A stretch of DNA of 64,000 nucleotides from the IMG/VR virus record IMGVR_UViG_2718218304_000001, positions 32,001 through 96,000 of that record; one strand, 5' to 3'. The stretch is from a virus. Its lineage: Duplodnaviria > Heunggongvirae > Uroviricota > Caudoviricetes. Positions 958-39,209 of this stretch are shown here, one piece after another. A model generated the notes under the pieces. The model saw only the letters and a program-made list of their open reading frames with translations. It searched no databases and was not told where the DNA came from. Within the stretch, counting starts at the first letter, position 1; each line of letters begins with the position of its first letter. The translations under genes were made by a program, and so were the position numbers.

Positions 958-1110
958 CACAACTCCGTAAACAACTTGTTTTCTCAATGGCGTAAATAAT
1001 ACCAGTAAGAAAACGGCTACAAAGCATAATGATCAGGTGCATGATCGATATGCAGGTTCCTCCCTGCGGCTATAGAGAAATTAAGCCAGCAATGCTGGCT
1101 TTGGTTGGGA

Positions 1111-1440
1111 TTACGCGAATACTTCAAGAAACTCCTGAACGTCCCAATGCTGGACAAGGTGAAGATAGACCTTAGAAATAACATCATTCTCGCTATCGCA
1201 TGTGAAGTAGTACTTCTGGCTGCGGTTGTATGTGTCCACACAAAATTCGCTCATATCCATAAAGTCAGCATCTTCACCCATGTCGCAAATCATCAAAGCA
1301 GGTGCATCATCACGAGTCATCAGCTCCAGCACCCATCTTGAATTAATCAGAGTGGAAGACCAACCTTCCAGCTCATAGAACTGGTCAAACTCTTTTTGAG
1401 TTAATTTCTTGATTTGGTTGATGTCGATATGTGCAAACAT
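1111..1440 (-). CDS. hypothetical acidic protein
   Basis: ORF track 1111..1461; start refined to the ATG at 1440 with AAGGAT upstream; motif-1 at 1451..1470. Acidic composition, no recognised domain. Confidence 0.35.
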   Translation of the reverse strand: MFAHIDINQIKKLTQKEFDQFYELEGWSSTLINSRWVLELMTRDDAPALMICDMGEDADFMDMSEFCVDTYNRSQKYYFTCDSENDVISKVYLHLVQHWDVQEFLEVFA

Positions 1441-1799
1441 AAAGCAATCCTTAAACAACATGTTTTCTTGATGGTGTTATTATCGCAATAACGCACAGGT
1501 GAAAAAGGATTTTATTCCGGTGAATGTGGTTTTGGCAGTGAGTTTTCAGGTTCAGTACCGAGTACACTTTTTACATTATTCTGATTTAGTGGCCGAAGGT
1601 GGCTGGTGGGCAGAATAATCCTCTCCCCGAAAACCTACTGAAATCGATTGTGACCCGTTGGCTGTCTGGCACAATTACGCTGTAACTGGGCATTCAGAGG
1701 GAATCCAGCGGTAAGTAAGTTCGCCTGCACGTGAGCGCCTCTCTTCTTCCCGCACATTACAGGTGGATAGCCGCAACTCTCCCTCTCGCTATACCGGTA

Positions 1800-1940
1800 C
1801 TCCACCGTTCCTGAACCGGCATCGAGCCTTCTCCCGAAATCCACACAGGCAACTCGACCGTTTCCCTGAAAACCTCCAGCCGTTCCCCGAAGGCAACCCA
1901 GCCGTTTCTGTAGCGGGATGCAACTTTTCCCTGTATGGAC
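1800..1940. repeat. array of ~6 imperfect direct repeats at ~22-bp spacing (core CCGTT(T)CCC(Y)GAAA)
   Basis: Read directly: ccgttcctgaacc, ccttctcccgaaatcc, ccgtttccctgaaaacc, ccgttccccgaaggcaacc, ccgtttctgtagcggg at ~22-bp intervals; a related unit near 1626. Confidence 0.45.
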
Positions 1941-1989
1941 CGAAGGCTGACCGTAGGGGTGTTACGGGGGATAAAATCAGGAGTTGAAT

Positions 1990-2020
1990 AAATACGAAAA
2001 AGGAGGCGACACCCCTCCTT
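1990..2020 (-). terminator. rho-independent terminator on minus strand (AGGAGG-loop-CCTCCT + U-run)
   Basis: Inverted repeat aggaggcgacacccctcct; on the minus strand it is followed by TTTTTCGTATTT. Confidence 0.5.
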
Positions 2021-2039
2021 CCCTCCCCACTTATACATA

Positions 2040-2860
2040 CCTGGCTTCTTCGCTATACATGTTGTGTTTTCTTCGTGTTTTATCTGTCTCAACCTCTCTA
2101 TAGGCGTTAATGCTCACCCCTTCCAGAACGTTCTATACGGCGACTATTTCTGTTGGTGAATTGGGCGTGTTGTTCTCTCTGTCGGTGTAAATGGTTTCGT
2201 TCGTTTTGCGGTGGTTCTTCTGTGGGGTGTTCTCGTCGTTTTGGTGATTGTTCTTCTCCGTCTATGGAGTAATGGCAGGTGGGCGATTCCTTTCGTTATT
2301 GTGTTTGAGTTGTTTGTCTGGAGTGTGTGAAAGGCTTTTGTAGTTATTCGTGTATTGGGTAATGGCGTTTCCCGTGATTGTTATGTTTCGTGTCTTTTGG
2401 GATTGAGAGAAACCTTGCGGTTACAGGCTTCGTTGGGGTTTCAGCGGTTCAGGTGTTTCTTCGCTGTTTGGGTAATGGCGTGTCGTGGGTATCGCGCGTA
2501 TGAATGTTTTCGGATTGCCTGTGAAAGTTAGGTTGGTTGTCCGGTAGCCTGGGAAGAAGAGGTGGGTCTTTTCGGTAGCCTGCCATAAAGAGGTTGGTTG
2601 TTTTGGGGAATGGCATATGTGTTATTTAGTTGTTTTGTTATGCCTGAAAATAAGTTGTTTATATGGTTGTGTAACGCAACGGGAACGATTTTGAGCGTGT
2701 GTTTTTGTTGGTAGTGTGTTGGATCGTCTGTGGTGAAAATTGGACGCTGTGGCGCTGTCTGCTGCGTAGAATTACGGGTATAAGCAGTGATGTGTGAAAA
2801 CGTCAATTTTTTAGACCAAATCGGGTGAAAGCGTTGACGTTTCGTTGATCTGTTATTCAG
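2040..2860 (-). other. ORF-free region with strong strand skew (plus strand G+T rich, minus strand C+A rich) and repeated GGGTAATGGCG-like units
   Basis: No credible ORF; the track ORF 2528..2884 is low-complexity. Bounded by a motif-1 copy at 2861..2890 and the minus-strand terminator at ~2000. Confidence 0.4.
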
Positions 2861-3015
2861 TTGTTTTCTTATTGGTATAAACAACGTTAACCTATTGATA
2901 TTTAAAGGTGTGATTGCAGGTATGGAAGGAGAGTAGTGGCGATCAACGGATTCTTATAGAAAAGAATCAAATTGTGACCGCCATTATCAACTGATTGATT
3001 TGTTTACTTGTGTAG

Positions 3016-3414
3016 TCAGTTCTCGAAATGAATAGGGTCAACGTAATGCCGCTCACCGCTTTTACCATTACACAGCACTGTAACTTTCGCCTTTTCACTC
3101 CAGGCTGAGTATAGAAAGTTCCCATCAGGTTGAACATGGTAACGAGAGAAGTAAACATCGCCGACTGAGGCGTCGAACATGTTCCTATCTTTTTCACTTT
3201 GGGCAAGCGAGATGGATATCACCGAATTCCCATTTGGGGAAACGATTTTAAATTTATTCCCTATATCCATAACAATATTGTAACCAGGTAATTGCTTGTG
3301 TGTTTCCGGATCTATTTTCATGCATCGTGGGTACACGATAGTGTTAGGCTCTTCAACTGGCGTGGCATTAGCAGAAAGCACAAAAAATATTAGTGCCAAT
3401 GGTGCATATTTCAT
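3016..3414 (-). CDS. secreted hypothetical protein (N-terminal signal peptide)
   Basis: ORF track; N-terminus MKYAPLALIFFVLSANA is signal-peptide-like. Confidence 0.4.
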   Translation of the reverse strand: MKYAPLALIFFVLSANATPVEEPNTIVYPRCMKIDPETHKQLPGYNIVMDIGNKFKIVSPNGNSVISISLAQSEKDRNMFDASVGDVYFSRYHVQPDGNFLYSAWSEKAKVTVLCNGKSGERHYVDPIHFEN

Positions 3415-3708
3415 TTATCCCTCACAATTTCCAATTTTCCAGACCATCGTCTATTTCAGCGTCAGGGTGGAATTGTACCGCATCAAATCCTACATCGAGC
3501 ACCTTTCGAATGTTCTTGATGGTTTGCTATGTGACACCGTAATCACGCAGCTTTTCTTCCCTCCCCTGACTCCCCCATACTCCGTTTCTGTACCCAATTG
3601 AGTCCGAGATCGTATGGTGCTCGAAACAGATATTTGGTAGACACTCAGAGTCATGCTGTGTAACGAGGGTAGGGCTACTAACTGTCGTCTTATACAATTT
3701 GGTGAGTT

Positions 3709-3957
3709 TCAGCATTTTACCACCCCGTTCGGAAACAACTCATTCGCCGTAGTTGATATAACCTCCCAATTAACGCCGACATCAGCGTTATGGCATTGTC
3801 TGATTTTTTGCATCACCTGTACGCATTGTTCATCAGTGAGATCTGTCCTTACTTCAGCAATATCTTCTTTGTGCCACATAACCATGAGTAAGGGTTCGTC
3901 TTCTGGATAGTTTTTCAGTTTCTCGATGATTTCTTTTGCTGTTCCAAACATCTTCAT
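3709..3957 (-). CDS. hypothetical acidic protein
   Basis: ORF track; GGAG before the ATG; motif-1 copy immediately upstream (3961..3980). Confidence 0.4.
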   Translation of the reverse strand: MKMFGTAKEIIEKLKNYPEDEPLLMVMWHKEDIAEVRTDLTDEQCVQVMQKIRQCHNADVGVNWEVISTTANELFPNGVVKC

Positions 3958-4059
3958 CTCCTAAACAATTTGTTTTCTTATATGACTTATTATCTCAATC
4001 AACAAAAGGTAGAAAACAAATTGTTTTAGAGTTTGTTAAAGTCAGAAGGGGTTGTGTCT

Positions 4060-4090
4060 ATATGAAAATGCCCAGCGTATTGCTGGGCAT
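4060..4090 (-). terminator. metG terminator hairpin (GCCCAGCGTATTGCTGGGC)
   Basis: Inverted repeat followed by a U-rich tract on the minus strand, directly after the metG stop. Confidence 0.55.
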
Positions 4091-4110
4091 TGTGAAGAAT
4101 GGTTGCTTAA

Positions 4111-6144
4111 TTACTTAACCTGGTGGCCAGGTTTAGCACCGACATCCGGGCTTAACAGGAAGATATCTTTCCCGCCAGGGCCAGCAGCCATCACCATGCC
4201 TTCGGAGATACCGAAGCGCATTTTACGCGGAGCCAGGTTAGCCACCATAATGGTGTGACGACCAATCAGTGCCTGTGGGTCTGGATAAGCAGAACGAATG
4301 CCGGAGAAGACATTGCGTTTTTCACCGCCGAGATCCAGCGTCAGGCGTAGCAGTTTGTCAGAACCTTCTACAAACTCTGCGTTTTCAATCAGCGCCACGC
4401 GCAGGTCAACTTTGGCGAAGTCGTCAAAGGTGATAGTTTCCTGAATCGGGTCGTCAGCCAGTGGGCCAGTTACCGGTGCGGCTGTGGCTTTCACTTCTTC
4501 TTTGGATGCTTCCACCAGTGCTTCAACCTGCTTCATATCGATGCGGTTATACAGTGCCTTGAACGGATTCACTTTATGGCCCAGCAGCGGTTGCTGGATA
4601 CCATCCCAGGTCAGTTCTGTATTCAGGAATGCTTCTGCACGTTCAGTCAGTTTCGGCAGTACCGGCTTCAAGTACGTCATCAGCACGCGGAACAGGTTAA
4701 TGCCCATAGAGCAAATCGCCTGCAGATCGGCATCGCGTCCTTCCTGCTTCGCCACCACCCACGGAGCCTGTTCATCGACATAGCGGTTAGCCAGGTCAGC
4801 CAATGCCATGATTTCACGGATAGCTTTACCAAATTCGCGGCTTTCCCATGCTTCACCAATCACTTCAGCAGCATCAGTGAAGGTTTTATACAGTTGCGGG
4901 TCAGCCAGTTCGCCTGCCAGCACACCGTCAAAACGCTTATTGATAAAGCCCGCGTTACGGGACGCCAGGTTAACCACTTTGTTAACGATATCGGCATTCA
5001 CACGCTGAACGAAATCCTCCAGGTTGAGATCGATATCATCAATACGCGAAGAGAGTTTCGCAGTGTAGTAGTAACGCAGGCTGTCAGCGTCAAAATGATT
5101 CAGCCAGGTGCTGGCTTTAATAAAGGTGCCGCGAGACTTGGACATCTTCGCGCCGTTCACCGTCACATAGCCATGAACAAACAGGTTGGTCGGCTTGCGG
5201 AAGTTGCTGCCTTCCAGCATGGCAGGCCAGAACAGGCTGTGGAAGTAAACAATATCTTTACCGATGAAGTGGTACAGCTCGGCGGTGGAGTCTTTCTTCC
5301 AGTATTCATCGAAGCTGGTGGTATCGCCGCGCTTGTCGCACAGATTCTTGAAGGAACCCATGTAGCCAATCGGCGCGTCCAGCCAGACGTAGAAATATTT
5401 GCCCGGCGCGTTCGGAATTTCAAAACCGAAGTAAGGCGCATCGCGGGATATATCCCACTGTTGCAGGCCGGATTCAAACCATTCCTGCATTTTGTTCGCC
5501 ACCTGCTCCTGCAACGCGCCGCTGCGGGTCCATGCCTGCAACATTTCGCTGAAAGAAGGTAGATCAAAGAAGAAGTGTTCGGAATCACGCATTACCGGGG
5601 TAGCGCCAGAAACCACCGATTTCGGCTCGATCAATTCAGTCGGGCTATATGTTGCGCCGCAGACTTCACAGTTATCGCCGTATTGATCTGGCGCTTTACA
5701 TTTCGGGCAGGTGCCTTTTACAAAACGATCCGGCAGGAACATGCCTTTTTCCGGGTCGTACAACTGAGAGATAGTGCGGTTTTTAATAAAACCGTTCTCT
5801 TTCAGGCGAGTATAGATAAGCTCAGACAACTGACGGTTCTCTTCGCTGTGCGTCGAGTGATAGTTGTCATAGCTGATGTTAAAGCCTGCGAAATCAGTCT
5901 GGTGTTCCTGACTCATTTCGCCAATCATCTGCTCCGGTGTGATACCAAGCTGCTGTGCTTTCAGCATGATCGGCGTACCGTGGGCATCGTCGGCACAGAT
6001 GAAATTAACCTCGTGGCCGCGCATTCGCTGGTAACGAACCCAGACATCAGCCTGGATGTGCTCCAGCATATGGCCGAGGTGGATTGAGCCGTTAGCGTAC
6101 GGCAGCGCGCACGTCACCAGAATTTTCTTCGCGACTTGGGTCAT
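4111..6144 (-). CDS. metG: methionyl-tRNA synthetase
   Basis: Translation starting [29 protein letters not shown] matches E. coli MetG over its full 677 aa as I recall it; the ORF-track start at 6273 is an upstream in-frame extension. Confidence 0.95.
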
Positions 6145-6301
6145 AGTAGGCATTACTTCTTTGTAGTGAAAAGGGGCTTGATAGTAACAAAATGGCCTTA
6201 TGTCTGCCATGTGATAACAGCATTTCTCATAAATGATTAAATGTCGTAGCTGGAGTACACTACAAGGCGACAATTGCGCAAATTAAAATAAAGGAGACGG
6301 G

Positions 6302-7402
6302 ATGAGCGAGTCCAAATCGCCGGATGCCCTGAGAGCAATGGTAGCCGGTACGCTGGCTAATTTTCAGCACCCAACCCTGAAACACAACCTGACTACGCTT
6401 AAAGCGTTACACCATGTTGCGTTGATGGATGACACACTGCATGTCGAACTAATCATGCCTTTCGTGTGGAATAAGCCTTTTGAAGACCTGAAAGAGCAAT
6501 GTAGTGGTGATCTGCTCCGTATCACTGGCGCAAAGGCTATTGACTGGAAGCTGTCGTACAACATTGCCACGCTTAAGCGCGTCAAAAACCAACCAGGCAT
6601 TAATGGCGTTAAGAACATTATCGCCGTCAGCTCAGGCAAGGGCGGCGTGGGTAAATCCTCCACGGCGGTAAACCTGGCACTGGCGTTGGCTGCTGAAGGT
6701 GCGAAAGTTGGTATTTTGGATGCCGATATCTATGGTCCATCAATTCCAACCATGCTGGGCGCGGAAAACCAACGTCCAACCTCACCGGACGGTACTCACA
6801 TGGCACCTATCATGTCTCATGGCCTGGCAACCAACTCTATTGGTTATCTGGTCACCGACGACAATGCAATGGTGTGGCGTGGACCGATGGCCAGCAAGGC
6901 GCTGATGCAGATGTTGCAGGAAACTCTATGGCCTGATCTGGACTATCTCGTTCTCGATATGCCGCCGGGCACTGGTGATATTCAGTTGACGCTGGCGCAG
7001 AACATTCCTGTAACTGGTGCGGTTGTGGTAACTACGCCGCAAGACATCGCGCTGATCGATGCGAAGAAAGGCATTGTGATGTTCGAAAAAGTCGAAGTGC
7101 CGGTACTGGGTATCGTCGAAAACATGAGTGTGCATATTTGCAGTAACTGCGGTCATCACGAGCCAATTTTTGGCACCGGTGGCGCACAGAAACTGGCCGA
7201 GAAATACAACACGCAGTTGTTAGGCCAAATGCCACTTCATATCTCTCTTCGTGAAGATCTGGATAACGGAACACCAACCGTTATTAGTCGTCCAGATAGC
7301 GAATTTACGGCTATTTATCGTGACCTCGCAGATCGCGTTGCCGCCCAAATGTATTGGCAAGGTGAAGTAATACCTGGCGAAATCGCATTCCGCGCAGTGT
7401 GA
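6302..7402 (+). CDS. apbC: Fe-S cluster carrier ATPase ApbC/Mrp
   Basis: Contains GKGGVGKS P-loop and CxxC; near-identical to E. coli Mrp/ApbC from memory. Confidence 0.95.
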   Translation: MSESKSPDALRAMVAGTLANFQHPTLKHNLTTLKALHHVALMDDTLHVELIMPFVWNKPFEDLKEQCSGDLLRITGAKAIDWKLSYNIATLKRVKNQPGINGVKNIIAVSSGKGGVGKSSTAVNLALALAAEGAKVGILDADIYGPSIPTMLGAENQRPTSPDGTHMAPIMSHGLATNSIGYLVTDDNAMVWRGPMASKALMQMLQETLWPDLDYLVLDMPPGTGDIQLTLAQNIPVTGAVVVTTPQDIALIDAKKGIVMFEKVEVPVLGIVENMSVHICSNCGHHEPIFGTGGAQKLAEKYNTQLLGQMPLHISLREDLDNGTPTVISRPDSEFTAIYRDLADRVAAQMYWQGEVIPGEIAFRAV

Positions 7403-7404
7403 TA

Positions 7405-7428
7405 AAAGGCGGTGCATTGCACCGCCTA
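7405..7428. terminator. bidirectional terminator hairpin between convergent apbC and the UmuD-like gene
   Basis: Inverted repeat ggcggtgcattgcaccgcc flanked by A/T runs. Confidence 0.5.
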
Positions 7429-7438
7429 ATCAGTTCTC

Positions 7439-7828
7439 CTACATCACGGGACAATCATCAAACTCGCCACTTCTTGCGTCGTTGATAATGTGAGTGATCA
7501 CACCAAACACGGCATTGCTGCCCGTGCATCCATCGTCATCCTTTGGCAATGCTTCCTTCTTACCGGTTCTTAAATCCTCCAGATGCTGACGTGGGTACTT
7601 CCGGTATCTTTTTACGCGATATTCCCCATCCAGAGCGCATACAAGCAGAGAACCATCAACCGGGGTAAGTGAGGAATCGACCACCAGCAATGCACCCTGT
7701 AATATTCCCTCACGATGATGACTATCAGCTGCCCTCATGAAGTAGGTCGCTGAAGGATGTCTAATTATCTGCTGATCAAGAGAAATACGGCTCTCAGCAT
7801 AATCCGCCGCAGGAGAAGGGAAGCCCAT
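7439..7828 (-). CDS. UmuD'-like S24 peptidase domain protein (lacks UmuD N-terminal arm; no umuC partner)
   Basis: MGFPSPAADYAE...HPSATYF...LLVVDS...DGEYRVKR aligns with UmuD from its Cys24-Gly25 cleavage site onward; Ser (ADSH) and Lys (RVKR) of the catalytic dyad are retained. Confidence 0.6.
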   Translation of the reverse strand: MGFPSPAADYAESRISLDQQIIRHPSATYFMRAADSHHREGILQGALLVVDSSLTPVDGSLLVCALDGEYRVKRYRKYPRQHLEDLRTGKKEALPKDDDGCTGSNAVFGVITHIINDARSGEFDDCPVM

Positions 7829-7926
7829 AGCGTTTTCACCTCAGAGTACTGTTTATCCATACAGTATACATTAAAGATGCTTGAAGTGTGCAATAGCGCG
7901 ATGCTTTGCGCTCGTCTGGTGGCGCG

Positions 7927-8178
7927 TTATTTTTTGGCTATATCTTCTTTCTGATATACCGGATCGTTTCCTTTTGGCAGCAGGAGGCTTAACTGCCGGT
8001 AGTGCCGTAGCCGTTCCATGAAATAGGTGCGCAGGTTCTCAGGTTGCTCACGGGCTACCTGTTCCGCTATGACGGGTATGTTCAATCGCTCTTTGTAGGC
8101 AACCCCCCTGGCAGCCAGGTCAACGTTAACTTTATTCCTTTCTTCCTGGCTTTTGGCTGCTATGTTCCAGTTGCTCAT
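7927..8178 (-). CDS. hypothetical protein
   Basis: ORF track only; no recognisable motifs. Confidence 0.2.
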
Positions 8179-8530
8179 GTTTAAGGCTCACATTTCCAGA
8201 TGGTATTCTGAACACCCGTACCAGGCGCAAGATGAGGGTTAGCGTTCGCGCTATGCAGATATACAGCTTTAGACTTTCCGTATTGCTGACAGGCTTTATC
8301 TGCGTTTTTTGGCAGGCTATCCAAGCCAATACCAGCCATCGAACTGGATGCTAACCTTTTCACCGTCATTGTATTGCACCATCGCACACCCAGACATAGC
8401 TAAAATCGCACCGACAATACCGCTTTTCCAAAAAGCTCTAATTAGGTCATTCGTTACCTAATGTCCGAACTGCTAAAGCATCCAAGTTGCTGTAGAATCA
8501 CATCCAATTACTTAAACCTGAAATAAGTGG

Positions 8531-10093
8531 ATGAAAATGACAAGTATTCAACAACGTGCAGAGCTTCATCGCCAGATCTGGCAAATTGCTAACGATGTCA
8601 GGGGTTCAGTCGATGGATGGGATTTTAAGCAGTACGTTTTGGGCGCGCTTTTTTACCGTTTTATCAGCGAAAATTTTTCCAGTTATATTGAAGCCGGTGA
8701 TGACAGTATCTGTTATGCGAAACTGGATGACAGCGTAATTACTGATGACATTAAAGACGATGCCATCAAAACTAAAGGCTACTTCATCTACCCCAGTCAG
8801 CTTTTCTGCAACGTAGCTGCGAAAGCAAATACTAATGACAGACTGAATGCAGATTTAAACAGCATCTTCGTTGCTATCGAAAGTTCTGCTTACGGTTATC
8901 CTTCAGAAGCTGACATCAAAGGTTTGTTTGCTGATTTCGATACCACCAGTAACCGCCTGGGTAACACCGTTAAAGATAAAAATGCCCGCTTGGCTGCGGT
9001 TCTGAAAGGGGTTGAAGGGCTAAAACTTGGTGACTTCCATGAACATCAGATTGACCTGTTCGGTGACGCCTATGAGTTCCTGATTTCTAACTATGCGGCG
9101 AATGCCGGTAAGTCCGGCGGCGAGTTCTTTACACCGCAGCACGTCTCTAAGCTGATTGCACAACTGGCTATGCACGGGCAGACCCACGTTAACAAAATCT
9201 ACGACCCGGCAGCAGGCTCCGGTTCGCTGTTGTTGCAGGCGAAAAAACAGTTTGATGACCATATCATCGAAGAAGGTTTTTTTGGTCAGGAAATCAACCA
9301 TACGACCTATAACCTGGCGCGTATGAACATGTTTTTGCACAACATCAACTACGACAAGTTTGATATCAAGCTGGGTAATACACTGACTGAGCCGCACTTC
9401 AGAGATGAAAAACCGTTTGATGCCATCGTTTCTAACCCGCCGTATTCGGTGAAATGGATTGGCAGCGATGACCCGACGCTGATTAACGATGAACGTTTTG
9501 CCCCGGCTGGCGTTCTGGCCCCCAAATCCAAAGCTGACTTTGCGTTTGTATTACATGCGCTGAACTATCTTTCGGCCAAAGGTCGCGCTGCGATTGTCTG
9601 CTTCCCAGGCATTTTTTACCGTGGCGGCGCGGAGCAGAAAATCCGTCAGTATCTGGTCGACAATAACTATGTCGAAACCGTGATTTCACTGGCACCGAAT
9701 CTGTTCTTTGGCACCACTATTGCCGTCAATATTCTGGTGCTGTCTAAACATAAAACGGATACCAAAGTTCAGTTTATTGATGCCAGCGAACTGTTCAAAA
9801 AAGAGACTAACAACAACATTCTGACCGATGCTCATATCGAACAGATTATGCAGGTATTTGCCAGCAAGGAAGATGTTGCTCATCTGGCGAAATCTGTTGC
9901 GTTTGAGACTGTTGTCGCGAATGACTATAACCTGTCGGTGAGCAGCTATGTGGAAGCGAAAGATACTCGCGAAATTATCGATATCGCTGAGCTGAATGCT
10001 GAGCTGAAAACCACGGTCAGCAAAATCGACCAGTTGCGTAAAGATATTGATGCGATTGTTGCTGAGATTGAAGGTAGCGAGGTACAGGCATGA
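8531..10093 (+). CDS. hsdM: type I restriction-modification methyltransferase subunit HsdM (type IC, EcoR124I-like)
   Basis: NPPY motif ([10 protein letters not shown]) and AdoMet-binding DPAAGSGS; sequence matches my recollection of EcoR124I HsdM. Confidence 0.9.
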
Positions 10094-11337
10094 GCGAGCT
10101 GAGTTATCTGGAAAAACTGCTGGATGGGGCTGAGGTTGAGTGGGTAGCATTAAATAAATTAGCAACTTTTTTAAAAGGGAAGTCTTTACCTAAAGAAAAA
10201 ATAACTCCAGATGGCAATAGATATTGTATTCATTACGGTGAGCTTTTCACTCATTATGGTCCCATAATTGACAAAGTATGCTCAAAAACAAACCAAGCAA
10301 TCAATGAGTCAATTCTATCTGAAAAAAATGATGTTCTAATGCCAACGTCAGACGTTACACCAAGAGGTTTGGCTACAGCTAGTTGCATTCAAGAAAGTGG
10401 CGTTATTTTAGGCGGCGATATTTTGATTATTAGATGCTCTGGTGTTGATGGTAGATATCTAAGTAATTTCATAATAAATAACAAAAAAAAGATATTGCAA
10501 ATGGTTAAAGGTTCTACTGTTTATCATTTGTATGCTAAAGATATAGGTAAATTACTTATCCCCATCCCTTGCCCCAACAACCCGGAAAAGTCGCTGGCTA
10601 TCCAGTCTGAAATCGTCAGGATTCTGGATAAATTTACTGCACTTACCGCTGAGCTTACCGCTGAGCTTAGCATGCGTAAAAAACAATACAACTACTATCG
10701 CGACCAGTTGTTGAGTTTTAAAGAGGGTGAGGTTGAGTGGAAAGCTTTGGGGGAAATTGGTGAAGTTCGTATGTGTAAACGAATCCTAAAATCACAAACA
10801 TCTTCTGAGGGAGAGATTCCATTTTATAAAATTGGGACATTTGGTAAGGAACCCGATTCCTATATATCTAGAAAACTATTTAATGAATTTAAAGAAAAAT
10901 ATAGTTATCCTAAAGTTGGCGAAGTATTGATTTCTGCCAGTGGGACCATCGGCAGGACTGTTATATTTGATGGTAGGGAATCATATTTCCAGGATAGCAA
11001 TATTGTCTGGATTGAAAATAATGAAAAAATAGTTTTAAATAAATATTTATTCTATTTCTATAAAATAGCAAAATGGGGAATATCTGAAGGTGGAACTATT
11101 AAAAGACTTTATAATGATAACTTAAGAAAACTTATGATACCAGTACCATTTCCTGATTCTCCTGAAAGATCGCTAGTTGAACAACAAAAAATAGTGAAAT
11201 TACTGGATAAATTTGATGCTTTGACCAATTCCATCACCGAAGGTCTTCCGCGTGAAATCGAGTTGCGCCAGAAACAATACGAGTACTATCGTGATTTACT
11301 GTTCAGTTTTCCCAAACCTGAAACTATCAGTAACTAA
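10090..11337 (+). CDS. hsdS: type I R-M specificity subunit HsdS (type IC)
   Basis: ATGA start/stop overlap with hsdM; two AT-rich target-recognition domains around a conserved central region with a TAELTAEL repeat. Confidence 0.85.
10642..10668 (+). repeat. 12-bp tandem repeat x2 (CTTACCGCTGAG) in the hsdS central region, encoding TAEL-TAEL
   Basis: Read directly; this repeat number is known in the EcoR124I/II family to set the spacer length of the recognition site. Confidence 0.8.
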
Positions 11338-11458
11338 TTGACCATTGCTACCGACCGGATCACCTTAACATCCGGTCTATATAGAGACTATTTTTTACAC
11401 GCCGGAAGTCGCCCTTAAAGCCCTTCCGGCCCTTGCCAGACGGCACAAAGGATGCGCT

Positions 11459-14400
11459 ATGACTCATCAGACACACACCATTGCTGAATCCAATAACTTT
11501 ATCGTTCTTGATAAGTACATCAAAGCCGAGCAAACAGGCGACAGCTACCAGAGCGAATCGGACCTGGAACGTGAACTGATTCAGGATCTGCGGAATCAGG
11601 GCTATGAATTTATTTCCGTAAAATCTCAGTCGGCGATGCTGGCCAACGTTCGGGAACAGCTTCAGAACCTCAATGGTGTGGTGTTTAATGACAGCGAATG
11701 GCGGCGTTTCACGGAGCAGTATCTGGATAACCCGAGCGATGGCATCCTGGATAAGACCCGTAAAATCCATATCGACTATATTTGCGACTTTATTTTTGAT
11801 GACGAGCGTCTTGAGAACATCTATTTGATAGATAAAAAGAATCTCATGCGCAACAAGGTGCAGATTATCCAGCAGTTTGAACAGACGGGTTCTCATGCTA
11901 ACCGTTATGACGTCACGATCCTGGTTAATGGCTTACCGCTGGTACAAATCGAACTGAAAAAGCGCGGCGTGGCGATTCGTGAGGCCTTTAACCAGATACA
12001 TCGTTACAGCAAAGAGAGTTTTAACAGCGAAAATTCTCTGTTTAAGTATCTGCAACTGTTTGTCATTTCCAACGGCACCGATACCCGTTACTTTGCCAAC
12101 ACGACAAAGCGCGATAAAAACAGTTTTGACTTCACCATGAATTGGGCGAAATCAGACAACACGCTGATTAAAGACCTCAAAGACTTTACCGCCACCTTTT
12201 TCCAGAAACATACCCTGCTTAATGTCTTAGTGAACTACAGCGTATTCGATGTTAGCCAAACGCTACTGGTGATGCGACCGTACCAGATTGCCGCCACTGA
12301 GCGCATTCTGTGGAAAATTAAGAGTTCCTTTACAGCGAAGAACTGGTCAAAACCGGAAAGCGGTGGGTATATCTGGCACACTACCGGTTCAGGTAAAACC
12401 CTCACCAGCTTTAAAGCCGCGCGTCTGGCAACAGAGCTGGACTTTATTGATAAAGTCTTCTTCGTGGTCGACAGGAAAGACCTCGATTACCAGACCATGA
12501 ATGAATATAAGCGTTTTTCGCCAGACAGCGTCAACGGCTCGGAAAATACCGCAGGTCTTAAACGCAATCTGGATAAGGACGATAACAAAATTATCGTCAC
12601 CACTATTCAGAAACTTAATAACCTGATGAAAGCAGAAAGCGACCTGCCTGTATACAATCAGCAAGTGGTGTTTATATTTGATGAATGTCACCGCAGCCAG
12701 TTTGGAGAAGCGCAGAAAAACCTGAAGAAGAAATTCAAACGCTATTATCAGTTTGGTTTTACCGGCACACCTATTTTCCCGGAAAACGCCTTAGGCTCAG
12801 AAACGACCGCCAGCGTATTTGGTCGTGAATTGCATTCGTATGTAATTACCGATGCGATTCGTGATGAAAAAGTGCTCAAATTCAAGGTGGACTACAACGA
12901 TGTGCGGCCACAGTTTAAATCTTTAGAGACAGAAACCGACGAGAAAAAACTGAGTGCGGCTGAAAATCAGCAGGCATTTCTTCATCCCATGCGTATACAG
13001 GAAATTACGCAATATATTCTGAATAACTTCCGCCAGAAGACCCACCGTACTTTCCCAGGTTCCAAAGGCTTTAATGCCATGCTGGCAGTGAGTAGCGTGG
13101 ATGCCGCGAAAGCCTATTACGCGACGTTTAAACGGTTACAAGAGGAAGCAGCTAATAAATCGGCTACCTATAAACCGCTGCGTGTTGCAACAATCTTCTC
13201 CTTTGCCGCCAATGAAGAACAAAATGCCATTGGTGAAATTTCCGATGAAACTTTTGATACCAGCGCAATGGACAGCAGTGCTAAAGAGTTTCTTGACGCT
13301 GCAATTCGTGAGTATAACAGCTATTTTAAAACTAACTTCAGCACCGACAGTAACGGTTTTCAGAACTACTATCGTGATTTAGCCCAACGGGTTAAAAATC
13401 AGGATATCGATCTGTTAATTGTCGTTGGGATGTTTTTAACCGGCTTCGACGCTCCAACATTGAACACGCTATTCGTCGATAAAAACTTGCGTTTTCACGG
13501 CCTGATGCAGGCATTCTCCCGTACCAACCGCATTTATGACGCTACTAAAACCTTCGGTAACATCGTCACTTTTCGGGATCTGGAACGCTCAACCATTGAT
13601 GCCATAACGCTGTTTGGTGATAAAAATACTAAAAATGTGGTGTTAGAAAAGAGTTATGCTGAGTATATGGAAGGCTTTACAGATGCTGCCACTGGTGAAG
13701 CTAAACGCGGCTTTATGGCAGTAGTTTCAGAACTGGAACAACGGTTCCCTGACCCTGCCAGTATTGAAAGTGAAAAAGAGAAGAAAGACTTCGTAAAACT
13801 GTTTGGTGAATACCTGCGTGCCGAGAACATCCTGCAAAACTATGATGAATTTGCCACGCTGAAAGCCCTGCAACAAATCGATCTTAGCGATCCTGTTGCG
13901 GTAGAAAAATTCAAAGCAGAACATTATGTGGATGATGAAAAGTTCGCTGAATTGCAAACAATTCGTCTCCCTGCTGAACGCAAGATTCAGGATTATCGTT
14001 CTGCCTATAACGATATTCGCGACTGGCAGCGCCGTGAGAAAGAAGCTGAGAAAAAAGAGAAATCAACCACTGACTGGGATGACGTAGTTTTTGAGGTCGA
14101 TTTGCTGAAGTCTCAGGAAATAAACCTGGATTATATCCTTGGACTGATTTTCGAACACAACAGACAAAATAAAGGCAAGGGCGAAATGATCGAAGAGGTC
14201 AAACGCTTAATTCGTTCAAGCCTGGGGAACCGGGCGAAAGAGGGCCTGGTGGTCGATTTTATTCAGCAAACGAACCTGGATGATTTACCAGACAAAGCCA
14301 GTATCATTGAGGCATTCTTTACGTTTGCTCAACGCGAACAGCAACGTGAAGCAGAAGCATTGATAAAAGAAGAAAATCTCAATGAAGAGGCGGCGAAACG

Positions 14401-14575
14401 CTATATTCGCACGTCTTTAAAACGCGAATACGCCACCGAAAATGGCACAGAATTAAACGAGACATTACCAAAACTTAGTCCGTTAAACCCGCAATATAAA
14501 ACGAAAAAACAGACCGTTTTCCAGAAAATCGTCACGTTTATTGAAAAGTTCAAAGGAGTAGGTGGGCAGATATAG
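11459..14575 (+). CDS. hsdR: type I R-M restriction subunit HsdR (helicase-nuclease)
   Basis: 1038 aa; Walker A TGSGKT and DECH box; only a 120-nt gap after hsdS. Confidence 0.9.
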
Positions 14576-15828: not shown

Positions 15829-15830
15829 AA

Positions 15831-16166: not shown

Positions 16167-16736
16167 TCAATTAGAGCTTTGAAAGACTTTGTGTGGTTGT
16201 GTTGCGAGGTTATGTCGATGGCTTAACTCACGCATCATGTCTTCAAGGCGACTCTTTGTGTCGTCGAGTTGGTCGGCCATTGCTCCCAAAAGCTGACGAA
16301 CGGCCATCGGATCATCGCTGTTTAGTGATGGCATTTTATAACCCGCCTGAGAAGACATAAGATTGAACGCAGACATCAACATCGTTAGAGAGGATTTAAG
16401 CCCAGCAATTTCACGATCTTTGCTGGCAATAATCGCCTCACTCTTGTTAGTGTCATCAGTTCGTTGAGTCTCGCTCACCATATCCAAAGTCGCCTGCAAC
16501 TTATCAGCGCGCTCTTTTTCAGCAAGATAATGAACACCGAAATGATGTGCTAAAGCTACAACCTGAGTTGGCTCTTCAAAGGTGGACTCAAAATTAAGTG
16601 CTGTAACCACTCTCTCAAATATGGAAACGTCTTCTATTCCTCGAAGAATGGCTAACATTTTGACCAGTTCATTAGCATCCATTTCTTCGAATAAGGCGTT
16701 TTGTTCATCAGCTATCGCTTTGCATTTCTTGCACAT
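16167..16736 (-). CDS. hypothetical protein
   Basis: ORF track; motif-1 and AGGAAAAACAC-ATG context upstream. Confidence 0.4.
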   Translation of the reverse strand: MCKKCKAIADEQNALFEEMDANELVKMLAILRGIEDVSIFERVVTALNFESTFEEPTQVVALAHHFGVHYLAEKERADKLQATLDMVSETQRTDDTNKSEAIIASKDREIAGLKSSLTMLMSAFNLMSSQAGYKMPSLNSDDPMAVRQLLGAMADQLDDTKSRLEDMMRELSHRHNLATQPHKVFQSSN

Positions 16737-17033
16737 GTGTTTTTCCTAATGCTTAAACAAGTTGTTTTCTTATTGGCTTTATTGTGATGTGGCATAAAAG
16801 GGGAGCAAGCTAAACGTAAAGGTGCAAACTCTCTATTTCGGTCAACGAAACACAAGGGCCATTTGGCCCTTGTCATTAACACGTTGCTTTACGGACTAGC
16901 GGATAAGCGAAGTAGATCGCCAGACCAATGAGGACGCCATCAGAAATGACAGACATCATCTTTCCCGTAAAATCCACCAACACCGCTATCACCAGAAGAG
17001 CAATGACGGTCACAAGCCGGAATCTCTCAAGCA

Positions 17034-17459
17034 TTAGAGATAAGCATCCAGTGACAACTGAAGCGCCTGGGCGATCTTTTTCAGCGCCTGCTCTTCTGGT
17101 TCATCAATGCCGTCCTGGTCGGCAATATCAAGGCACAGACACAGTACATCTACTGCATCATCAGTCCCGGCCACATCCGCCAGCTCACGTAAAGCCTGGG
17201 CATTAGCACGGCGCGGTGAGGCTTCGTATTGAGCGCGGATATTGGCGCTCATCTGGGCAATCTCACCAGCAAAAGGAGAAAATGCAGGCAGAGCTGCAAT
17301 TGTTTTCTCAAGAATGGAAATTTCTTTTGCATCGCATGTACCGTTGGCATAGGAGATCATGTACCCGCCCCACACGGTGGCTTCAACCGCATCACGGTTC
17401 TCCATTTTTTTGACTTCGATAACAGCTTTACGAGTTTTCTTTTTGAAGAAACCTAACAT
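17034..17459 (-). CDS. TerB-like (tellurite-resistance TerB family) domain protein
   Basis: Acidic helical protein with TerB-like pattern (..DAKEISILEKTIAAL..DVLCLCLDIADQDG..EEQALKKIA); motif-1 upstream. Confidence 0.45.
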   Translation of the reverse strand: MLGFFKKKTRKAVIEVKKMENRDAVEATVWGGYMISYANGTCDAKEISILEKTIAALPAFSPFAGEIAQMSANIRAQYEASPRRANAQALRELADVAGTDDAVDVLCLCLDIADQDGIDEPEEQALKKIAQALQLSLDAYL

Positions 17460-17552
17460 GTGTTTTCCTTTTGCTATTTGTCAAAACAAATTGTTTTCTG
17501 GTTACATAAATTGCTTACGCAAAGACGGTCAATGCATATGCACTAACAACCG

Positions 17553-26534: not shown

Positions 26535-27677
26535 TTACAGGTCTGCAAACTGGCTTAGAGAAGCCTTATCCACGGTAGAATCGATCTGACCTACCAGATA
26601 TGTGCTTTGCTCTGCCTCTTGTGGCGCAATTTGCAGTGTGTCGGTTAACAACCACTTGTTCATCCAGACCAGCGGATCAGTGGTAACTTCTGGAAATAAA
26701 GCCTTCAGGCCAAGACGATTCATAGCCAGATTGGTGCGGTATTTTACATAGGTTTTGAGAATATCCGCGTTTAAACCAATCATCGAACCGTCTTTGAAGA
26801 GATAGTCTGCCCAGTTCATTTCTTGTTCGGCGACTGATTTCATGGTGTCGTAAATGACGTTTTCTTCATCAGCAGCAATCTCTTTCCACAATAAACCTTC
26901 GCGACCGGTACGCATGAAGCGGATCATGCGTTCAGTTCCTTCGCAATGCAGAGCTTCATCACGGGCAATAAAGCGCATAATTTTGGTGTTACCCTCAAGC
27001 AACTTCCGTTCACCAAAGGCAAACGTACATGCAAAACTTACGTAGAAACGGATCGCCTCAAGCGCATTAATGGACACCAACGTGCGGAAAAGCTGACGAT
27101 GCAAAGGGTATGGCTCCCAGCCATATTCATTTACGTACAGACGCTCAAATTCCTTCTCACCTAACGACTGGCGCTCGCAGGTCATCCCATAAAGCCTGTC
27201 ATATTCAGCAGAGATACTGATCGCTCGGTTGATGATTTCTTCATCCGTAACAATACCGTCAAAAACAATGCTCGGATCGTCCACCATGCCACGAATAATG
27301 TGGGTGTAGCTGCGGCTATGGATAGTCTCAGAGAAAGACCACGTTTCAACCCACGTTTCCAGTTCAGGAATAGAGATAAGCGGCAGAAGCGTTGCATTTG
27401 GGCTACGTCCCTGAACTGAATCGAGTAACGTTTGATAACGGAGATTGCTCAGAAAAATGTGACGTTCGTGGTCCCGCAGCTTCGTGTTGAAGTCGATACG
27501 ATCACTCGAAATATCAACTTCTTCCGGCCGCCAGAAGAAAGACAATTGACGTTCAATCAACTTTTCAAAATCACGGTATTTTTGCTGATCGTAACGTGCC
27601 ACGTTGACAGATTGTCCGAGGAACATAGGCTCTTTGGTTGCATCATTAGCACCCAAACGGAACGTTGAATATGACAT
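26535..27677 (-). CDS. nrdB: ribonucleotide reductase class Ia beta subunit
   Basis: 380 aa with a diiron/tyrosyl-radical subunit pattern; directly downstream of nrdA. Confidence 0.85.
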
Positions 27678-27783
27678 GTGTTTTTCCTTTTTCTTTTTTA
27701 GTGCGTTTAAACAAGTTGTTATCTTATGTGTTTAAACAAGGCTTACAAATCAAAGAGAAGGTGGGGATATCCCCCACCATATG

Positions 27784-30140: not shown

Positions 30141-30170
30141 GTTAATAGATAAGTACTTACCTATCAATGA
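30141..30170 (-). promoter_or_regulatory. sigma70-like promoter overlapping a palindrome (TTGATA-17 bp-TAACAT) upstream of nrdA
   Basis: Minus strand reads TTGATAGGTAAGTACTTATCTATTAACAT; member of the motif-2 family. Confidence 0.4.
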
Positions 30171-30172
30171 AA

Positions 30173-30742: not shown

Positions 30743-30751
30743 ATAGTCTCC

Positions 30752-33401: not shown

Positions 33402-33630
33402 ATAACACCTCTGATACCGTGTGTTAGCTTTTGGCCTTCTTTCAATCTGAACTCCGTATGCGCCGGGAAGGATCTGCGCCTCAATACGCCTTTTCTTGTT
33501 AACCTTCCAAGATAAAACGCTACGGGATTTCCTTGTGGCGGGTAGGGCTTGTGAAACATCACCGTCTGGCCTCGTTCAAGTCTTTTCATCGTGATGGCAA
33601 AGTCTCGAAAGCTCCCATAACGACTTTGCT

Positions 33631-34716: not shown

Positions 34717-34970
34717 GTGTTTTTCCTTTGTGGTTATTTTGATACAAATTCTAAGAGCAATGAGGAGGTAAACAACTATGCATAACGGTATGTTAGGAAT
34801 GAAACGAGCGCCTTAATATACAAAATTTATAAGTAAGTATATACCTATTTATCGTGGCGCAACTTTGCTTGTCTGTATGACTAAAAATAAGACAGGATCA
34901 CTGTAGAACGCTATGAGAGCTATTTTGAGGGGGCGTAGATTCTATCTACGCCAATATACGATCTGGAGGG

Positions 34971-35615: not shown

Positions 35616-35814
35616 ATGTCATTTTTCTGTGATTGTTAGCCGAGGCAACGATAACCCACCAGGTGCGCCGAAGGTAGTAAATGCCTGTTTTAATTATTCA
35701 CATATCCACAGGATAGATCCTAATAAAGAGATCCATAGATAGATCCTTGTATAGATCAAATAAGATCCCCGATCGCTGTAAGCCGCGCCACGACTGGTCT
35801 GAAGCCATGTTCAT

Positions 35815-35925
35815 GTATGCTGTCAGCGGTAATTGATAGTCTGTCAGCGGTTCACCGTATGCTGCCAACTGTTTTTGGTATTCTGTCAGCGGCAAATCAA
35901 GTATGCTGTCAGCGGTTGAATGACA
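35815..35925 (+). repeat. upstream iteron cluster (~5 copies, consensus TATGCTGTCAGCGGT)
   Basis: Direct repeats read in sequence immediately 5' of the rep start. Confidence 0.7.
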
Positions 35926-35936
35926 AAGGTGTCCAC

Positions 35937-37031: not shown

Positions 37032-37032
37032 T

Positions 37033-37560
37033 ATGCTGTCAGCGGTGAAATGTATGCTATCAGCGGCTATTTTTCTGAAAAGTATGCTGTGAACGGTTAA
37101 AGATATGCTACCAGCGGTATAGTGAGATGAACGTATGCTGTGGGCGGTAAATCATCTATCACCACTCAATGCTCTTTTATACCTCCCCAGTGGTTACTAA
37201 CCTCGAAGAGTGCATTCCATATAGGTTTGCGCTCACTAACATTCTATTCCCATTGCGCTGATTGCTTGTAGTGAAAGGCATTTATTGCCTGCTGCTCCCT
37301 GATAGAACGTATGCTGTCAGCGGTGTTTTATTGAGGAATTTTTGTTTGGATATGCTATCAGCGGTAATTAATGGTATATGTCAGACCTTCGTATGCTGCC
37401 AGCGGTAATTTTGTTCTGGTTATACCCATACCGGTACACATTATTCATGCAATGTCTTAAGTATGCTGTCAGCGGTAAAAAATCGAGTAAAGTATGCTGT
37501 GAGCGGTGAGATAGACTCTCGATATGCTATCAGCGGTAGTTGATTGTGTATGCTGTTAGC
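37033..37560 (+). repeat. downstream iteron array (~12 copies of (G/A)TATGCTGTCAGCGGT with variants)
   Basis: Copies near 37033, 37053, 37085, 37105, 37133, 37310, 37352, 37393, 37462, 37491, 37521, 37546. Confidence 0.75.
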
Positions 37561-37610
37561 GGTGACGACTATGAAATATGACTGCGGCACGTTCCGCAGT
37601 CAGTTTGCAT

Positions 37611-37823
37611 TTAGTGTATTTTCTTTAACAGACCCCAAAGTGTTCCGGCTTTTGTAGTCAGTTTTCCTGTTTCTGGATCGTACATACGCCATTCACGCCG
37701 CTGGTGGACGATATACCCATCTTCACGTTCCAGACGCTCAAGAATGCCAGACTGCTTGAAACCCTTAGCACGCCAGTATCCGCTTGTTTTCTCGATTTCC
37801 AGACCTGCCAGTGTTAATGCCAT
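37611..37823 (-). CDS. hypothetical small protein
   Basis: ORF track; stop/start overlap with the upstream gene. Confidence 0.3.
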   Translation of the reverse strand: MALTLAGLEIEKTSGYWRAKGFKQSGILERLEREDGYIVHQRREWRMYDPETGKLTTKAGTLWGLLKKIH

Positions 37824-38158
37824 TATCCAACCTCCTTGCAGTCATCGAAAAGGTAGCTTTGCTGAGAAGCGTGAACGCCATAGAAGCCCTTGTATTTGTT
37901 GTATACGAAGTGGTCTTCTCCGACGCCGGTTAATTTGCCATTACGGTTTGTGAGATATGGGGATGACAATACTCGATCGTCACGCACAACATAGAACTGG
38001 TCGCCGCTGTCTACGACCATCGCTCCATATGGTGCTTTTATGACGTCGGTAAGAGCGCCATTCTTAACGTCGGCTACAGACATTTCACACTGATAAACAG
38101 TGGTGTCGGCCACAACGATCGAGGAAAGGAACAACAGAGCGAATGGGATGGCCTTCAT
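37823..38158 (-). CDS. secreted hypothetical protein (signal peptide)
   Basis: N-terminus MKAIPFALLFLSSIVVA. Confidence 0.4.
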   Translation of the reverse strand: MKAIPFALLFLSSIVVADTTVYQCEMSVADVKNGALTDVIKAPYGAMVVDSGDQFYVVRDDRVLSSPYLTNRNGKLTGVGEDHFVYNKYKGFYGVHASQQSYLFDDCKEVG

Positions 38159-38334
38159 GCTGCCACCTCTTTGATTACATCAAATGCTGAATTAAATACG
38201 AGCACGATAGCCAAAGCGTTTATGACTACGTCGTTCACCGGGGAAAAGACTTTACGAATGACACCGGTGAAAATGCAGTCGATGACAAAAGCTATTGAAA
38301 CGATGAGTAACAAGTATTCAATAAAAATCTTCAT
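38158..38334 (-). CDS. small hydrophobic membrane protein (58 aa; below the ORF-track cutoff)
   Basis: Translated by hand: MKIFIEYLLLIVSIAFVIDCIF...; ATGA overlap with the downstream gene. Confidence 0.3.
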
Positions 38335-38373
38335 GATAGGTAGATACTAACTTATATAAATTTTACTATAAAC

Positions 38374-38649
38374 TCACTCAAAAGTGCTGATGCTTAAAAT
38401 ACGCTCAAGATGTGCGGCATCTTCATCACTGATTTGTTGAGTCTCTTCTACGTACCAACAGTTGCCGTTATGCCAACAAACACCATCATCATCAACTATC
38501 ACTGAAACAGCGTCATGACCTGTATATTCAACGAGAATACGCTGGATCAGCGCGTCAGTTTCTTCGTCGTTAAGGCCATCAGCTTTGACCATAAAAAGCG
38601 GAAACACGTCATAGACAGTGCTGGTAACGATTCGAACTAAAACTCTCAT
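38374..38649 (-). CDS. hypothetical protein
   Basis: ORF track only. Confidence 0.3.
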   Translation of the reverse strand: MRVLVRIVTSTVYDVFPLFMVKADGLNDEETDALIQRILVEYTGHDAVSVIVDDDGVCWHNGNCWYVEETQQISDEDAAHLERILSISTFE

Positions 38650-38704
38650 GTGTTTTTCCTTTTGTGGTTAGTGTTTACTTATTTTGTTAGTTATGAATAG
38701 GCGA

Positions 38705-39130
38705 TCAATCTTCTTGTTTAGGGAAAAACTGTTCAATAACTCTGTCAACGGCTGTGTCTATATGGAGTAGATGCCACACAACCATATCTTTGCTTCCCAT
38801 GCCTTGTGTGAATATCACGTCATACTTACGCCATGCGCAGTGGAACCAATATGCTGAGTCATCAATTGGTAAATCCTCTCCCGCCTCTTTGAAGTATTTC
38901 AGCAGCATTGCCTGCTCTGCCGTTGGCGTTGGACCTATTTCCTGAGCGTACATACGGATGAATCGCTGCCAGTCTGTCTCGTCGGGGGTTGGATCTGGTG
39001 GGGTCATTTCTGCGATAGCGTTTCGTAGCTGATGCGCCCAATCAGGTTCAGGAAAGCCTTTTGCTACTTCATCATCAATAACATCCAGAGCCACGTTTGC
39101 GGCATCGTAGAGTTTCTTAATAGCTGTCAT
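38705..39130 (-). CDS. hypothetical protein
   Basis: ORF track; motif-1 and AAGGAT immediately upstream. Confidence 0.35.
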   Translation of the reverse strand: MTAIKKLYDAANVALDVIDDEVAKGFPEPDWAHQLRNAIAEMTPPDPTPDETDWQRFIRMYAQEIGPTPTAEQAMLLKYFKEAGEDLPIDDSAYWFHCAWRKYDVIFTQGMGSKDMVVWHLLHIDTAVDRVIEQFFPKQED

Positions 39131-39209
39131 GTTTTCTTATCCTTTTAAACAAATTGTTTTCTTAATAAGATAATTGCGATAAAAAAGGCGTCCTGTGGAC
39201 GCCTTGTGT

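Follow-up and report, generated by a model that had tools for sequence, protein, structure and literature searches.

A recurrent near-palindrome behind extended -10 promoters as a possible dispersed operator of SSU5-type phage-plasmids

Short operators shared by many promoters of one replicon are known from plasmids and phages. KorB of plasmid RK2, whose network includes KorA/KorB, has 13-bp palindromic operators, and omega of pSM19035, a ribbon-helix-helix (RHH) protein, has heptad sites in several promoters; both are global regulators that double as partition proteins. In the phage-plasmid P1, the C1 operator is repeated around the genome and overlaps the promoters of many operons. At the level of RNA, RegA of phage T4 represses early mRNAs. 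Here we describe an 18-bp near-palindrome, AAGAAAACAAnTTGTTTA, that recurs in a 64,000-nt stretch of DNA (positions 32,001 to 96,000 of the IMG/VR record IMGVR_UViG_2718218304_000001, referred to below as the window) and that may serve as an operator of this dispersed kind. No account of this motif was found in the searchable literature, nor of the lysis-lysogeny control, operators or regulators of SSU5-type phages, to which the window belongs.

When the window was searched with the pattern AAGAAAACAANTTGTTTA, allowing up to three mismatches, 12 matches were obtained as compared with a mean of 0.49 in dinucleotide-preserving shuffles, and none out of 100 shuffles got to 12. The core of the motif is a 13-bp palindrome (AAACAAnTTGTTT). 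Seven strong direct copies were observed, each of them on the minus strand and pointing the same way as the next minus-strand gene, and the start codon was found 10-30 nt downstream of them (Table 1). The first-pass annotation of this DNA had pointed to a recurrent, non-random element just upstream of the Shine-Dalgarno (SD) sequence, and this was borne out both by the excess over the shuffles and by the start codons: across the family, 40 of 60 promoter-type site clusters have the start 7-19 nt behind the motif. The full copies listed there are all present, at coordinates that had to be shifted by 0-12 nt (27696 to 27708 and 53487 to 53494), but a copy at 2644-2661 on the plus strand had been missed, and the copy placed near 2861 is a left half-site only in the window, its full form occurring in related contigs.

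To describe the surroundings of the motif, 466 distinct 148-nt contexts were grouped into 113 clusters. A -10 hexamer, accepted if it carried A at position 2 and T at position 6, was detected 7-11 nt upstream of the motif in 58 of the 113 clusters; the spacing was exactly 9 nt in 42 of these and 10 nt in 11 more. The hexamer was GATAAT in 30 clusters, and the TG of an extended -10 element was found at -15/-14 in 38 of the 58 clusters against about 6% expected, which gives the consensus TGnGATAAT. Within the window, TGn together with a hexamer was seen at three of the seven direct copies and, in the case of the inverted copy at 62-79, in the promoter that follows it. No usable -35 element was found, and a two-hexamer promoter scan of the motif sites returned no matches. 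Because the -10 hexamer lies 9-10 nt upstream, transcription is predicted to start at an A some 3 nt ahead of the motif, and the motif would then lie at approximately +4 to +21. It had been stated earlier that the motif is too close to the start codon to be a sigma-70 promoter for the same gene; the motif is indeed not a promoter itself, but a -10 hexamer stands 9-10 nt upstream of it in 53 of the 58 clusters.

At many cassette promoters an inverted copy (TAAACAAnTTGTTTTCT) was found about 15 nt upstream of the -10 element with its centre near -38, the inverted and direct copies being 48-52 bp apart. The AGAAAAC arm faces the -10 element in both orientations, and this common asymmetry fits recognition of duplex DNA. 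A hairpin with a T-run directly precedes the promoter module in most cassettes; the inverted copy at 62..79, for instance, comes directly after the terminator hairpin of the preceding gene. A small accessory gene thereby forms its own unit of terminator, candidate operator, promoter, candidate operator, SD sequence and gene, and the dyad-symmetric site has, in the manner of an operator, a fixed place within the predicted footprint of RNA polymerase.

The whole window is one SSU5-like phage-plasmid, a virus living as a plasmid. Most of it shows 98% identity to Escherichia phage Cyrano (pLF82), of which it corresponds to 97,267 to 36,020 in reverse orientation, and the part from 14500 to 39400 shows 77% identity to Salmonella phage SSU5 over the matching parts. 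For the part from 1 to 8500, identity to E. coli plasmids 95-115 kb in size reaches 98-99%, and the plasmid-type arrangement of this part was found in 176 E. coli genomes. Annotated relatives encode capsid, tail, terminase, dnaE, helicase, ligase and nrdAB, together with T4-like recombination genes, RepA and ParA. A metG and apbC copy (4111-7402) and a complete type I restriction-modification system, hsdM/hsdS/hsdR (8531-14575), are carried as cargo in the accessory region. A chromosome with an island as the context was thus ruled out, and the earlier proposal of two regions, metG on the one side and a "large element" on the other, that the motif would connect falls with it, as metG-apbC is cargo of the same phage-plasmid.

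In order to follow the motif in relatives, a weight matrix made from the seven window copies was used to scan Cyrano, SSU5 and Klebsiella phage pJN2-26. This search across the replicon and related elements, which the first-pass annotation had proposed, yielded about 20 sites per genome and the same promoters in all three: those of accessory cassettes, nrdB, a tciA/terB-like gene and the next small gene, cobT, helicase and parA, in addition to the terS leader. An exact-pattern scan of IMG/VR gave 119 loci, of which 102 proved to be SSU5-like in blastn comparisons; the motif is specific to the SSU5-like lineage. Use of the motif by other phage groups was rejected, as each of the 17 non-SSU5 loci held a single, chance-like match. 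Synonymous divergence (dS) between the lineages is saturated, with values of 1.4-1.9 for three genes, so that unselected intergenic sequence should be scrambled; the motif is nonetheless unchanged. Within clusters, variation was 0.055 in the region from -51 to -31 as compared with 0.133 in the farther flank, a comparison that is free of the bias arising from choosing sites by the motif. Upstream of the CYRAN_93 orthologues, where the inverted copy stands alone as it does at 62-79 of the window, the inverted copy, the spacer and TGTGAAAAT were nearly invariant in three genomes, the terminator stem carried compensatory substitutions and the leader had diverged.

We therefore favour, at about even chances, the reading that the motif is a dispersed DNA operator of a phage repressor, shared by a promoter family of the SSU5-type phage-plasmid; that binding takes place on DNA, that repression is its effect and which protein is the binder are the inferred parts of this reading. 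A complete unit would consist, in order, of the terminator hairpin of the preceding gene, an optional inverted copy with its centre at about -38, a spacer of about 15 nt, the extended -10 element, a gap of 9 nt, the direct copy spanning about +4 to +21, the SD sequence and the start codon. A dimeric, sequence-specific DNA-binding protein encoded by the phage-plasmid would occupy one or both copies and block RNA polymerase, and about 20 promoters (accessory cassettes, helicase, nrdB, cobT, parA and the terS leader) would in this way be kept low during plasmid life. A dimeric DNA-binding protein at the palindrome had been one of two suggestions in the first-pass annotation, and it is the better one here in view of the fixed promoter placement and the lack of RNA structure described below.

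RNA sequencing of the Cyrano lysogen LF82 (PMC9928086, table S1) bears on the proposed effect. With a median of 9.8 normalised reads, the genes directly behind the motif have values of 5-25 and are thus at background; these are CYRAN_1, 32, 47, 58, 70, 85, 87, 93, 101, 105, 106, 108, 110 and 111 (PMC9928086). Extended -10 promoters are usually active unaided, so the silence of these genes fits repression. The parA operon reads 50-89 in the same lysogen (parA 50, the putative RHH gene 89; PMC9928086).

Several points weigh against an operator of this kind. Background values are seen for the majority of prophage genes in the lysogen, and silence is thus unspecific to the genes behind the motif (PMC9928086). 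The copies at nrdB, helicase and the tciA-like gene have no convincing -10 element at the fixed distance, and the transcription start sites are in all cases predictions. In most cassettes the motif abuts the SD sequence, which control of translation would fit equally. The near-identical promoter blocks could in part come from recombination that spread one cassette promoter. In a distant lineage (L193:5200-5330) the direct copy at parA has decayed, and the inverted copy and a GATAAT promoter remain. Finally, the RHH assignment of the putative binder discussed below comes from a weak family match, a sequence pattern and a poor model.

The most serious competitor, which we regard as unlikely, is an operator at the RNA level: the motif would stand at the 5' end of short leaders beside the SD sequence as the target of an FljA-like protein. 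By keeping ribosomes from binding, this protein would repress and destabilise about 15-20 mRNAs of the phage, in the way in which FljA acts on fliC mRNA and RegA of T4 on early mRNAs. Most copies do adjoin the SD sequence, and some (nrdB, helicase) lack a clear -10 element. However, a single-stranded RNA site would have no need of a 6+6 palindrome. The mRNA stem-loop that had been proposed at first did not hold up either: the hairpin of the palindrome is a 5-bp A-U-rich stem of about -0.7 kcal/mol, the seven predicted window leaders folded no better than shuffles (z -0.5 to +1.2), and no compensatory change was found among the 113 cluster representatives, where one wobble stood against 45 broken pair cells. 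A known RNA family at these sites was ruled out as well, the Rfam scan of the window returning a cspA thermoregulator and three tRNAs and nothing at the motif. The distance to the -10 element is tighter than that to the start codon, which was absent within 60 nt in 15 of the 60 promoter-type clusters. About a quarter of the conserved copies are inverted and upstream of the -10 element, hence outside the transcript of the downstream gene, yet they are kept with the same asymmetry. The weak hairpin, the lack of covariation, the tighter -10 spacing and the inverted copies together favour recognition of duplex DNA.

The FljA-like protein itself deserves attention. FljA represses fliC mRNA in Salmonella (PMC2652032). 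A full-length member of the FljA family (PF03614, E = 1e-80), CYRAN_114, is encoded about 3.5 kb past the left window edge in Cyrano. The gene was found in 12 of 12 SSU5-like phage records, six of them from Klebsiella, and in no other phage record. The protein is about 40% identical to chromosomal FljA, and the ratio of nonsynonymous to synonymous divergence (dN/dS) is 0.12. Its model comprises two Hfq/Sm-like barrels without a helix-turn-helix (HTH), which predicts a single-strand nucleic-acid binder and keeps the RNA-level reading alive. Autoregulation through the motif was rejected, as no copy is present in the upstream region of the gene, and the missing motif in its own leader speaks against an RNA target too. 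The Salmonella and Citrobacter fliC leaders share 8 nt with the motif (CAAGTTGT) and the E. coli K-12 fliC leader has no match, so mimicry of the fliC leader is improbable. The gene is also weakly expressed in the lysogen in LB, at 18 against the median of 9.8. That the motif leaders form a post-transcriptional regulon of this tandem Hfq-fold protein appears unlikely. If it were true, an A/U-rich operator at the 5' terminus would allow SSU5-type phages to silence about 15-20 mRNAs of their own, and the phase-variation repressor FljA of Salmonella would be a domesticated member of a family of phage translational repressors.

Coming back to an operator on DNA, the putative RHH protein encoded after parA (CYRAN_29 family; this gene and parA lie outside the window) is our best candidate for the binder by analogy with ParG and omega, a tentative choice with somewhat less than an even chance even if binding is at the DNA level. 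The family has a basic N-terminal tail followed by a strand-helix-helix pattern, and the segment IKSRTMS..., which includes the predicted beta-strand, is invariant, with a dN/dS of 0.03. The match to the RHH family aCcr1 was weak (E = 2e-4), no relative was found in the PDB by sequence, and the monomer model was poor (predicted local distance difference test score, pLDDT, 64), its quality being insufficient for a comparison of folds. When the parA promoters of five lineages were compared, TTAGGCTA..CATAAGAAAACAnnTTGTTT was the one block without variation; here a TTTACA-17-TAGGCT promoter is followed by the motif at about +5 to +22.

The position of this gene suggests another explanation, which we consider distinctly improbable, that the copies are mainly parS-like partition sites for a type Ib ParA/RHH system and that any effect on transcription is secondary. 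The parA promoter keeps the motif in diverged lineages, the protein after parA has the basic tail and strand-helix-helix of ParG/omega-type centromere binders, and no clustered repeat array that could be a classical centromere lies near the par operon; no multi-copy repeat family was found within 2.5 kb around that of Cyrano, and the motif copies are dispersed. A distant SSU5-like contig with a diverged RHH protein (L196:5150-5320) has three direct AAAACA(A/G) half-sites upstream of parA, the direct motif being gone; this contig and L193, whose RHH protein has diverged as well, possibly represent natural variation in operator architecture. Against partition sites, the strict placement at +4 to +21 and about -38 and the co-orientation with genes are predicted by control of transcription and not by segregation, and the RHH assignment is weak.

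We give little credence to a mobile promoter cassette without any dedicated factor, in which a module of promoter and leader has been spread by recombination among small accessory genes and the motif is kept as part of the copied module or because it serves well as leader or as initial transcribed sequence. Entire blocks of 45-60 bp (terminator, inverted copy, spacer, -10, the discriminator aAcaCCAAc and the motif) do recur before unrelated small genes, three diverged genomes have a nearly identical block before the CYRAN_93 orthologues, and genes bracketed by inverted copies are good substrates for recombination. But the motif is kept at the core promoters of parA, helicase, cobT, nrdB and terS as well, and as the flanks of core promoters have fully diverged while the motif stays, selection on the 18 bp itself is indicated. 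A leader function would also leave the palindromic symmetry and the paired inverted arrangement unexplained. An artefact of chance or composition can practically be dismissed, since, even though the motif and the intergenic regions are both A/T-rich and the match inside metG (5243-5260), like the 17 single matches in unrelated viral contigs, is probably due to chance, the 12 copies far exceed the shuffles and stand at the same positions across genomes with dS >1.

Other binders were considered. CYRAN_45, an Xre-type regulator (54041-54427, plus strand), is unlikely, as its divergent control region has no motif and its gene is missing from SSU5, which keeps the motif. The control region (53790-54040), which separates this gene from a small minus-strand gene, contains the palindrome GGTAAGTGCTTACC at about 53997-54010 and GGTAAG/CTTACC repeats, and these are probably a second, separate operator set belonging to the Xre-type regulator. 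The HicB-like/HTH protein CYRAN_50 is unlikely too, its control region being free of the motif and its gene absent from Klebsiella pJN2-26. Among sites of host factors (IHF, CytR, PurR and others), no convincing likeness to the motif was recognised.

The positions of the copies and of their promoters are collected in Table 1. The degenerate copy at the cobT-like gene spans 53494-53511, or 53497-53514 if read in the direct orientation, and its counterpart in SSU5 is strong (26.7 bits). In two cassette genes an in-frame ATG lies inside or just after the motif (1438-1461 and 3949-3957). The listing of open reading frames (ORFs) starts these genes at 1461 and 3957, as the Cyrano annotation does for the homologue of the first; the listed starts are probably 2-7 codons too long, and the second ATG (1440, 3951) is favoured because of its SD spacing. 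The half-site at 2853..2870 heads a stretch of about 800 nt on the minus strand (2050-2860) without a credible ORF, the strand being C+A-rich and G-poor; the AT skew over 2001-4000 is -0.236, and in plasmid AH02 no coding sequence is annotated in the orthologous region. A non-coding transcript or a region for Rho loading could account for this stretch. In the leader of terS (late operon), one or two motif copies are directly followed by a GC hairpin with a T-run (GAGCGCatggacGCGCTCtgtgtgtttt), located some 10 nt upstream of the SD sequence of terS; the hairpin resembles a terminator or attenuator, and the late genes may thus need antitermination. Elsewhere in the window, the cspA thermoregulator matched Rfam at full length with 185.7 bits before the phage-plasmid cold-shock gene (45655-46073, plus strand), and the three tRNA genes form a cluster at 56960-57203 (minus strand).

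Table 1. Motif copies and associated promoter features; positions refer to the window unless another contig is named
Feature	Position	Strand	Remarks
Solitary inverted copy	62..79	+	15 nt upstream of extended -10 TGtGAAAAT 41-49
Gene behind the 62..79 copy	ATG 4-6		CYRAN_108 homologue; continues past window edge
Direct copy GAGAAAACAAGTTGTTTA	968..985	-	27.7 bits; ATG 955-957; small hypothetical CYRAN_106 homologue, 646-957
Promoter of 968 copy	-10 TATTAT 996-1001; TG 1003-1004	-	
Direct copy AAGAAAACATGTTGTTTA	1452..1469	-	27.3 bits; likely ATG 1438-1440; CYRAN_105 homologue
Promoter of 1452 copy	extended -10 TGcGATAAT 1479-1487	-	9 nt upstream
Opposite-strand copy CTGAAAATAAGTTGTTTA	2644..2661	+	Within ORF-free stretch of about 800 nt; kept in two large clusters of related contigs
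Left half-site only, AAGAAAACAActgaataa	2853..2870	-	Heads ORF-free stretch of about 800 nt; full motif in related contigs
Direct copy AAGAAAACAAATTGTTTA	3962..3979	-	28.5 bits; GGAG directly after; ATG 3949-3951; DUF1380 gene
Promoter of 3962 copy	extended -10 TGaGATAAT 3989-3997	-	9 nt upstream
Inverted partner of 3962 copy	4010..4027	+	48 bp centre to centre; over -35 region of 3962 promoter
Direct copy AAGAAAACAACTTGTTTA	16754..16771	-	ATG 16734-16736; CYRAN_87 homologue; kept in SSU5 and Klebsiella
Promoter of 16754 copy	-10-like CACAAT 16781-16786	-	9 nt upstream
Direct copy CAGAAAACAATTTGTTTT	17483..17500	-	15-bp perfect palindrome; ATG 17457-17459; TciA/TerB-like gene; no clear -10
Direct copy AAGATAACAACTTGTTTA	27708..27725	-	nrdA-nrdB spacer, after hairpin; nrdB ATG 27675-27677; no good -10
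Direct copy AAGAAAACAATTTGTTTA	39146..39163	-	After terminator; -10-like AATTAT 39170-39175; ATG 39128-39130; CYRAN_58 homologue
Degenerate copy	53494..53514	-	TAGTAAATAATTTGTTTT in direct reading; ATG 53476-53478 of cobT-like gene, 15 nt on
terS leader, Cyrano	L003:53-134		Outside window
terS leader, SSU5	L006:52-133		Outside window
terS leader, Klebsiella pJN2-26	L178:38624-38682		Outside window

SSU5-type phage-plasmids are widespread and include pHCM2 of S. Typhi, pLF82/Cyrano and many Klebsiella and E. coli elements, some of them with resistance genes. The motif defines a testable regulon of about 20 promoters in these elements and provides a sequence handle for finding the master regulator, and it marks the borders of the accessory-gene cassettes that host cargo such as metG-apbC or restriction systems. 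It also raises the questions of whether a partition-type RHH protein doubles as a global phage silencer and what role the conserved FljA-like Hfq-fold protein has in hosts without flagella.

Compared with known systems, the FljA-fliC and RegA systems share with the motif a conserved A/U-rich element beside the SD sequence in many leaders, and an FljA-family protein is a core gene here. However, the verified fliC leader has 8 nt in common with the motif, and neither of the two systems is known to have a palindrome, inverted copies outside the transcript or a fixed distance to the -10 element. The promoter-early stem-loop (PeSL) cassettes of T4-type phages resemble the present ones in that small accessory genes, each with a terminator hairpin and an early-type promoter, are repeated in a plastic region, and SSU5-type phages carry T4-like replication and recombination genes; PeSL cassettes are not known to have a palindromic operator downstream of the -10 element, though, and as the sequences differ the likeness is architectural only. 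In N15, dispersed sopC centromeres lie near phage promoters and affect expression. Here, too, a phage-plasmid par operon has no adjacent centromere array and palindromic sites are scattered in regulatory regions, but the sites of N15 number four and its partition system, SopAB, is of type Ia, as opposed to about 20 sites placed strictly at promoters and a type Ib-like ParA.

The likeness to KorB and omega lies in a short palindromic or repeated site in many promoters of one replicon, the operon of the parA type included, and in a candidate binder that is a small RHH-like protein encoded after parA. The differences are that the present case is a phage with about 20 target promoters, that its palindromes are single or paired rather than heptad arrays, and that the motif has no sequence similarity to those sites. 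With the C1 operators of P1 the motif shares its repetition around a phage-plasmid genome at the promoters of many operons, the two copies at some promoters and targets that are silent in the plasmid-prophage state. The P1 site is, however, an asymmetric 17-mer (ATTGCTCTAATAAATTT) without likeness to the motif when compared by eye, whereas the motif is a near-palindrome fixed at +4 to +21 behind extended -10 promoters; no C1-like protein was noticed in the annotations of Cyrano, SSU5 and pJN2-26, for which no dedicated homology search was made. By sequence a member of none of them, the arrangement described here would nevertheless seem to work like the operator networks of P1 C1, RK2 KorA/KorB and pSM19035 omega.

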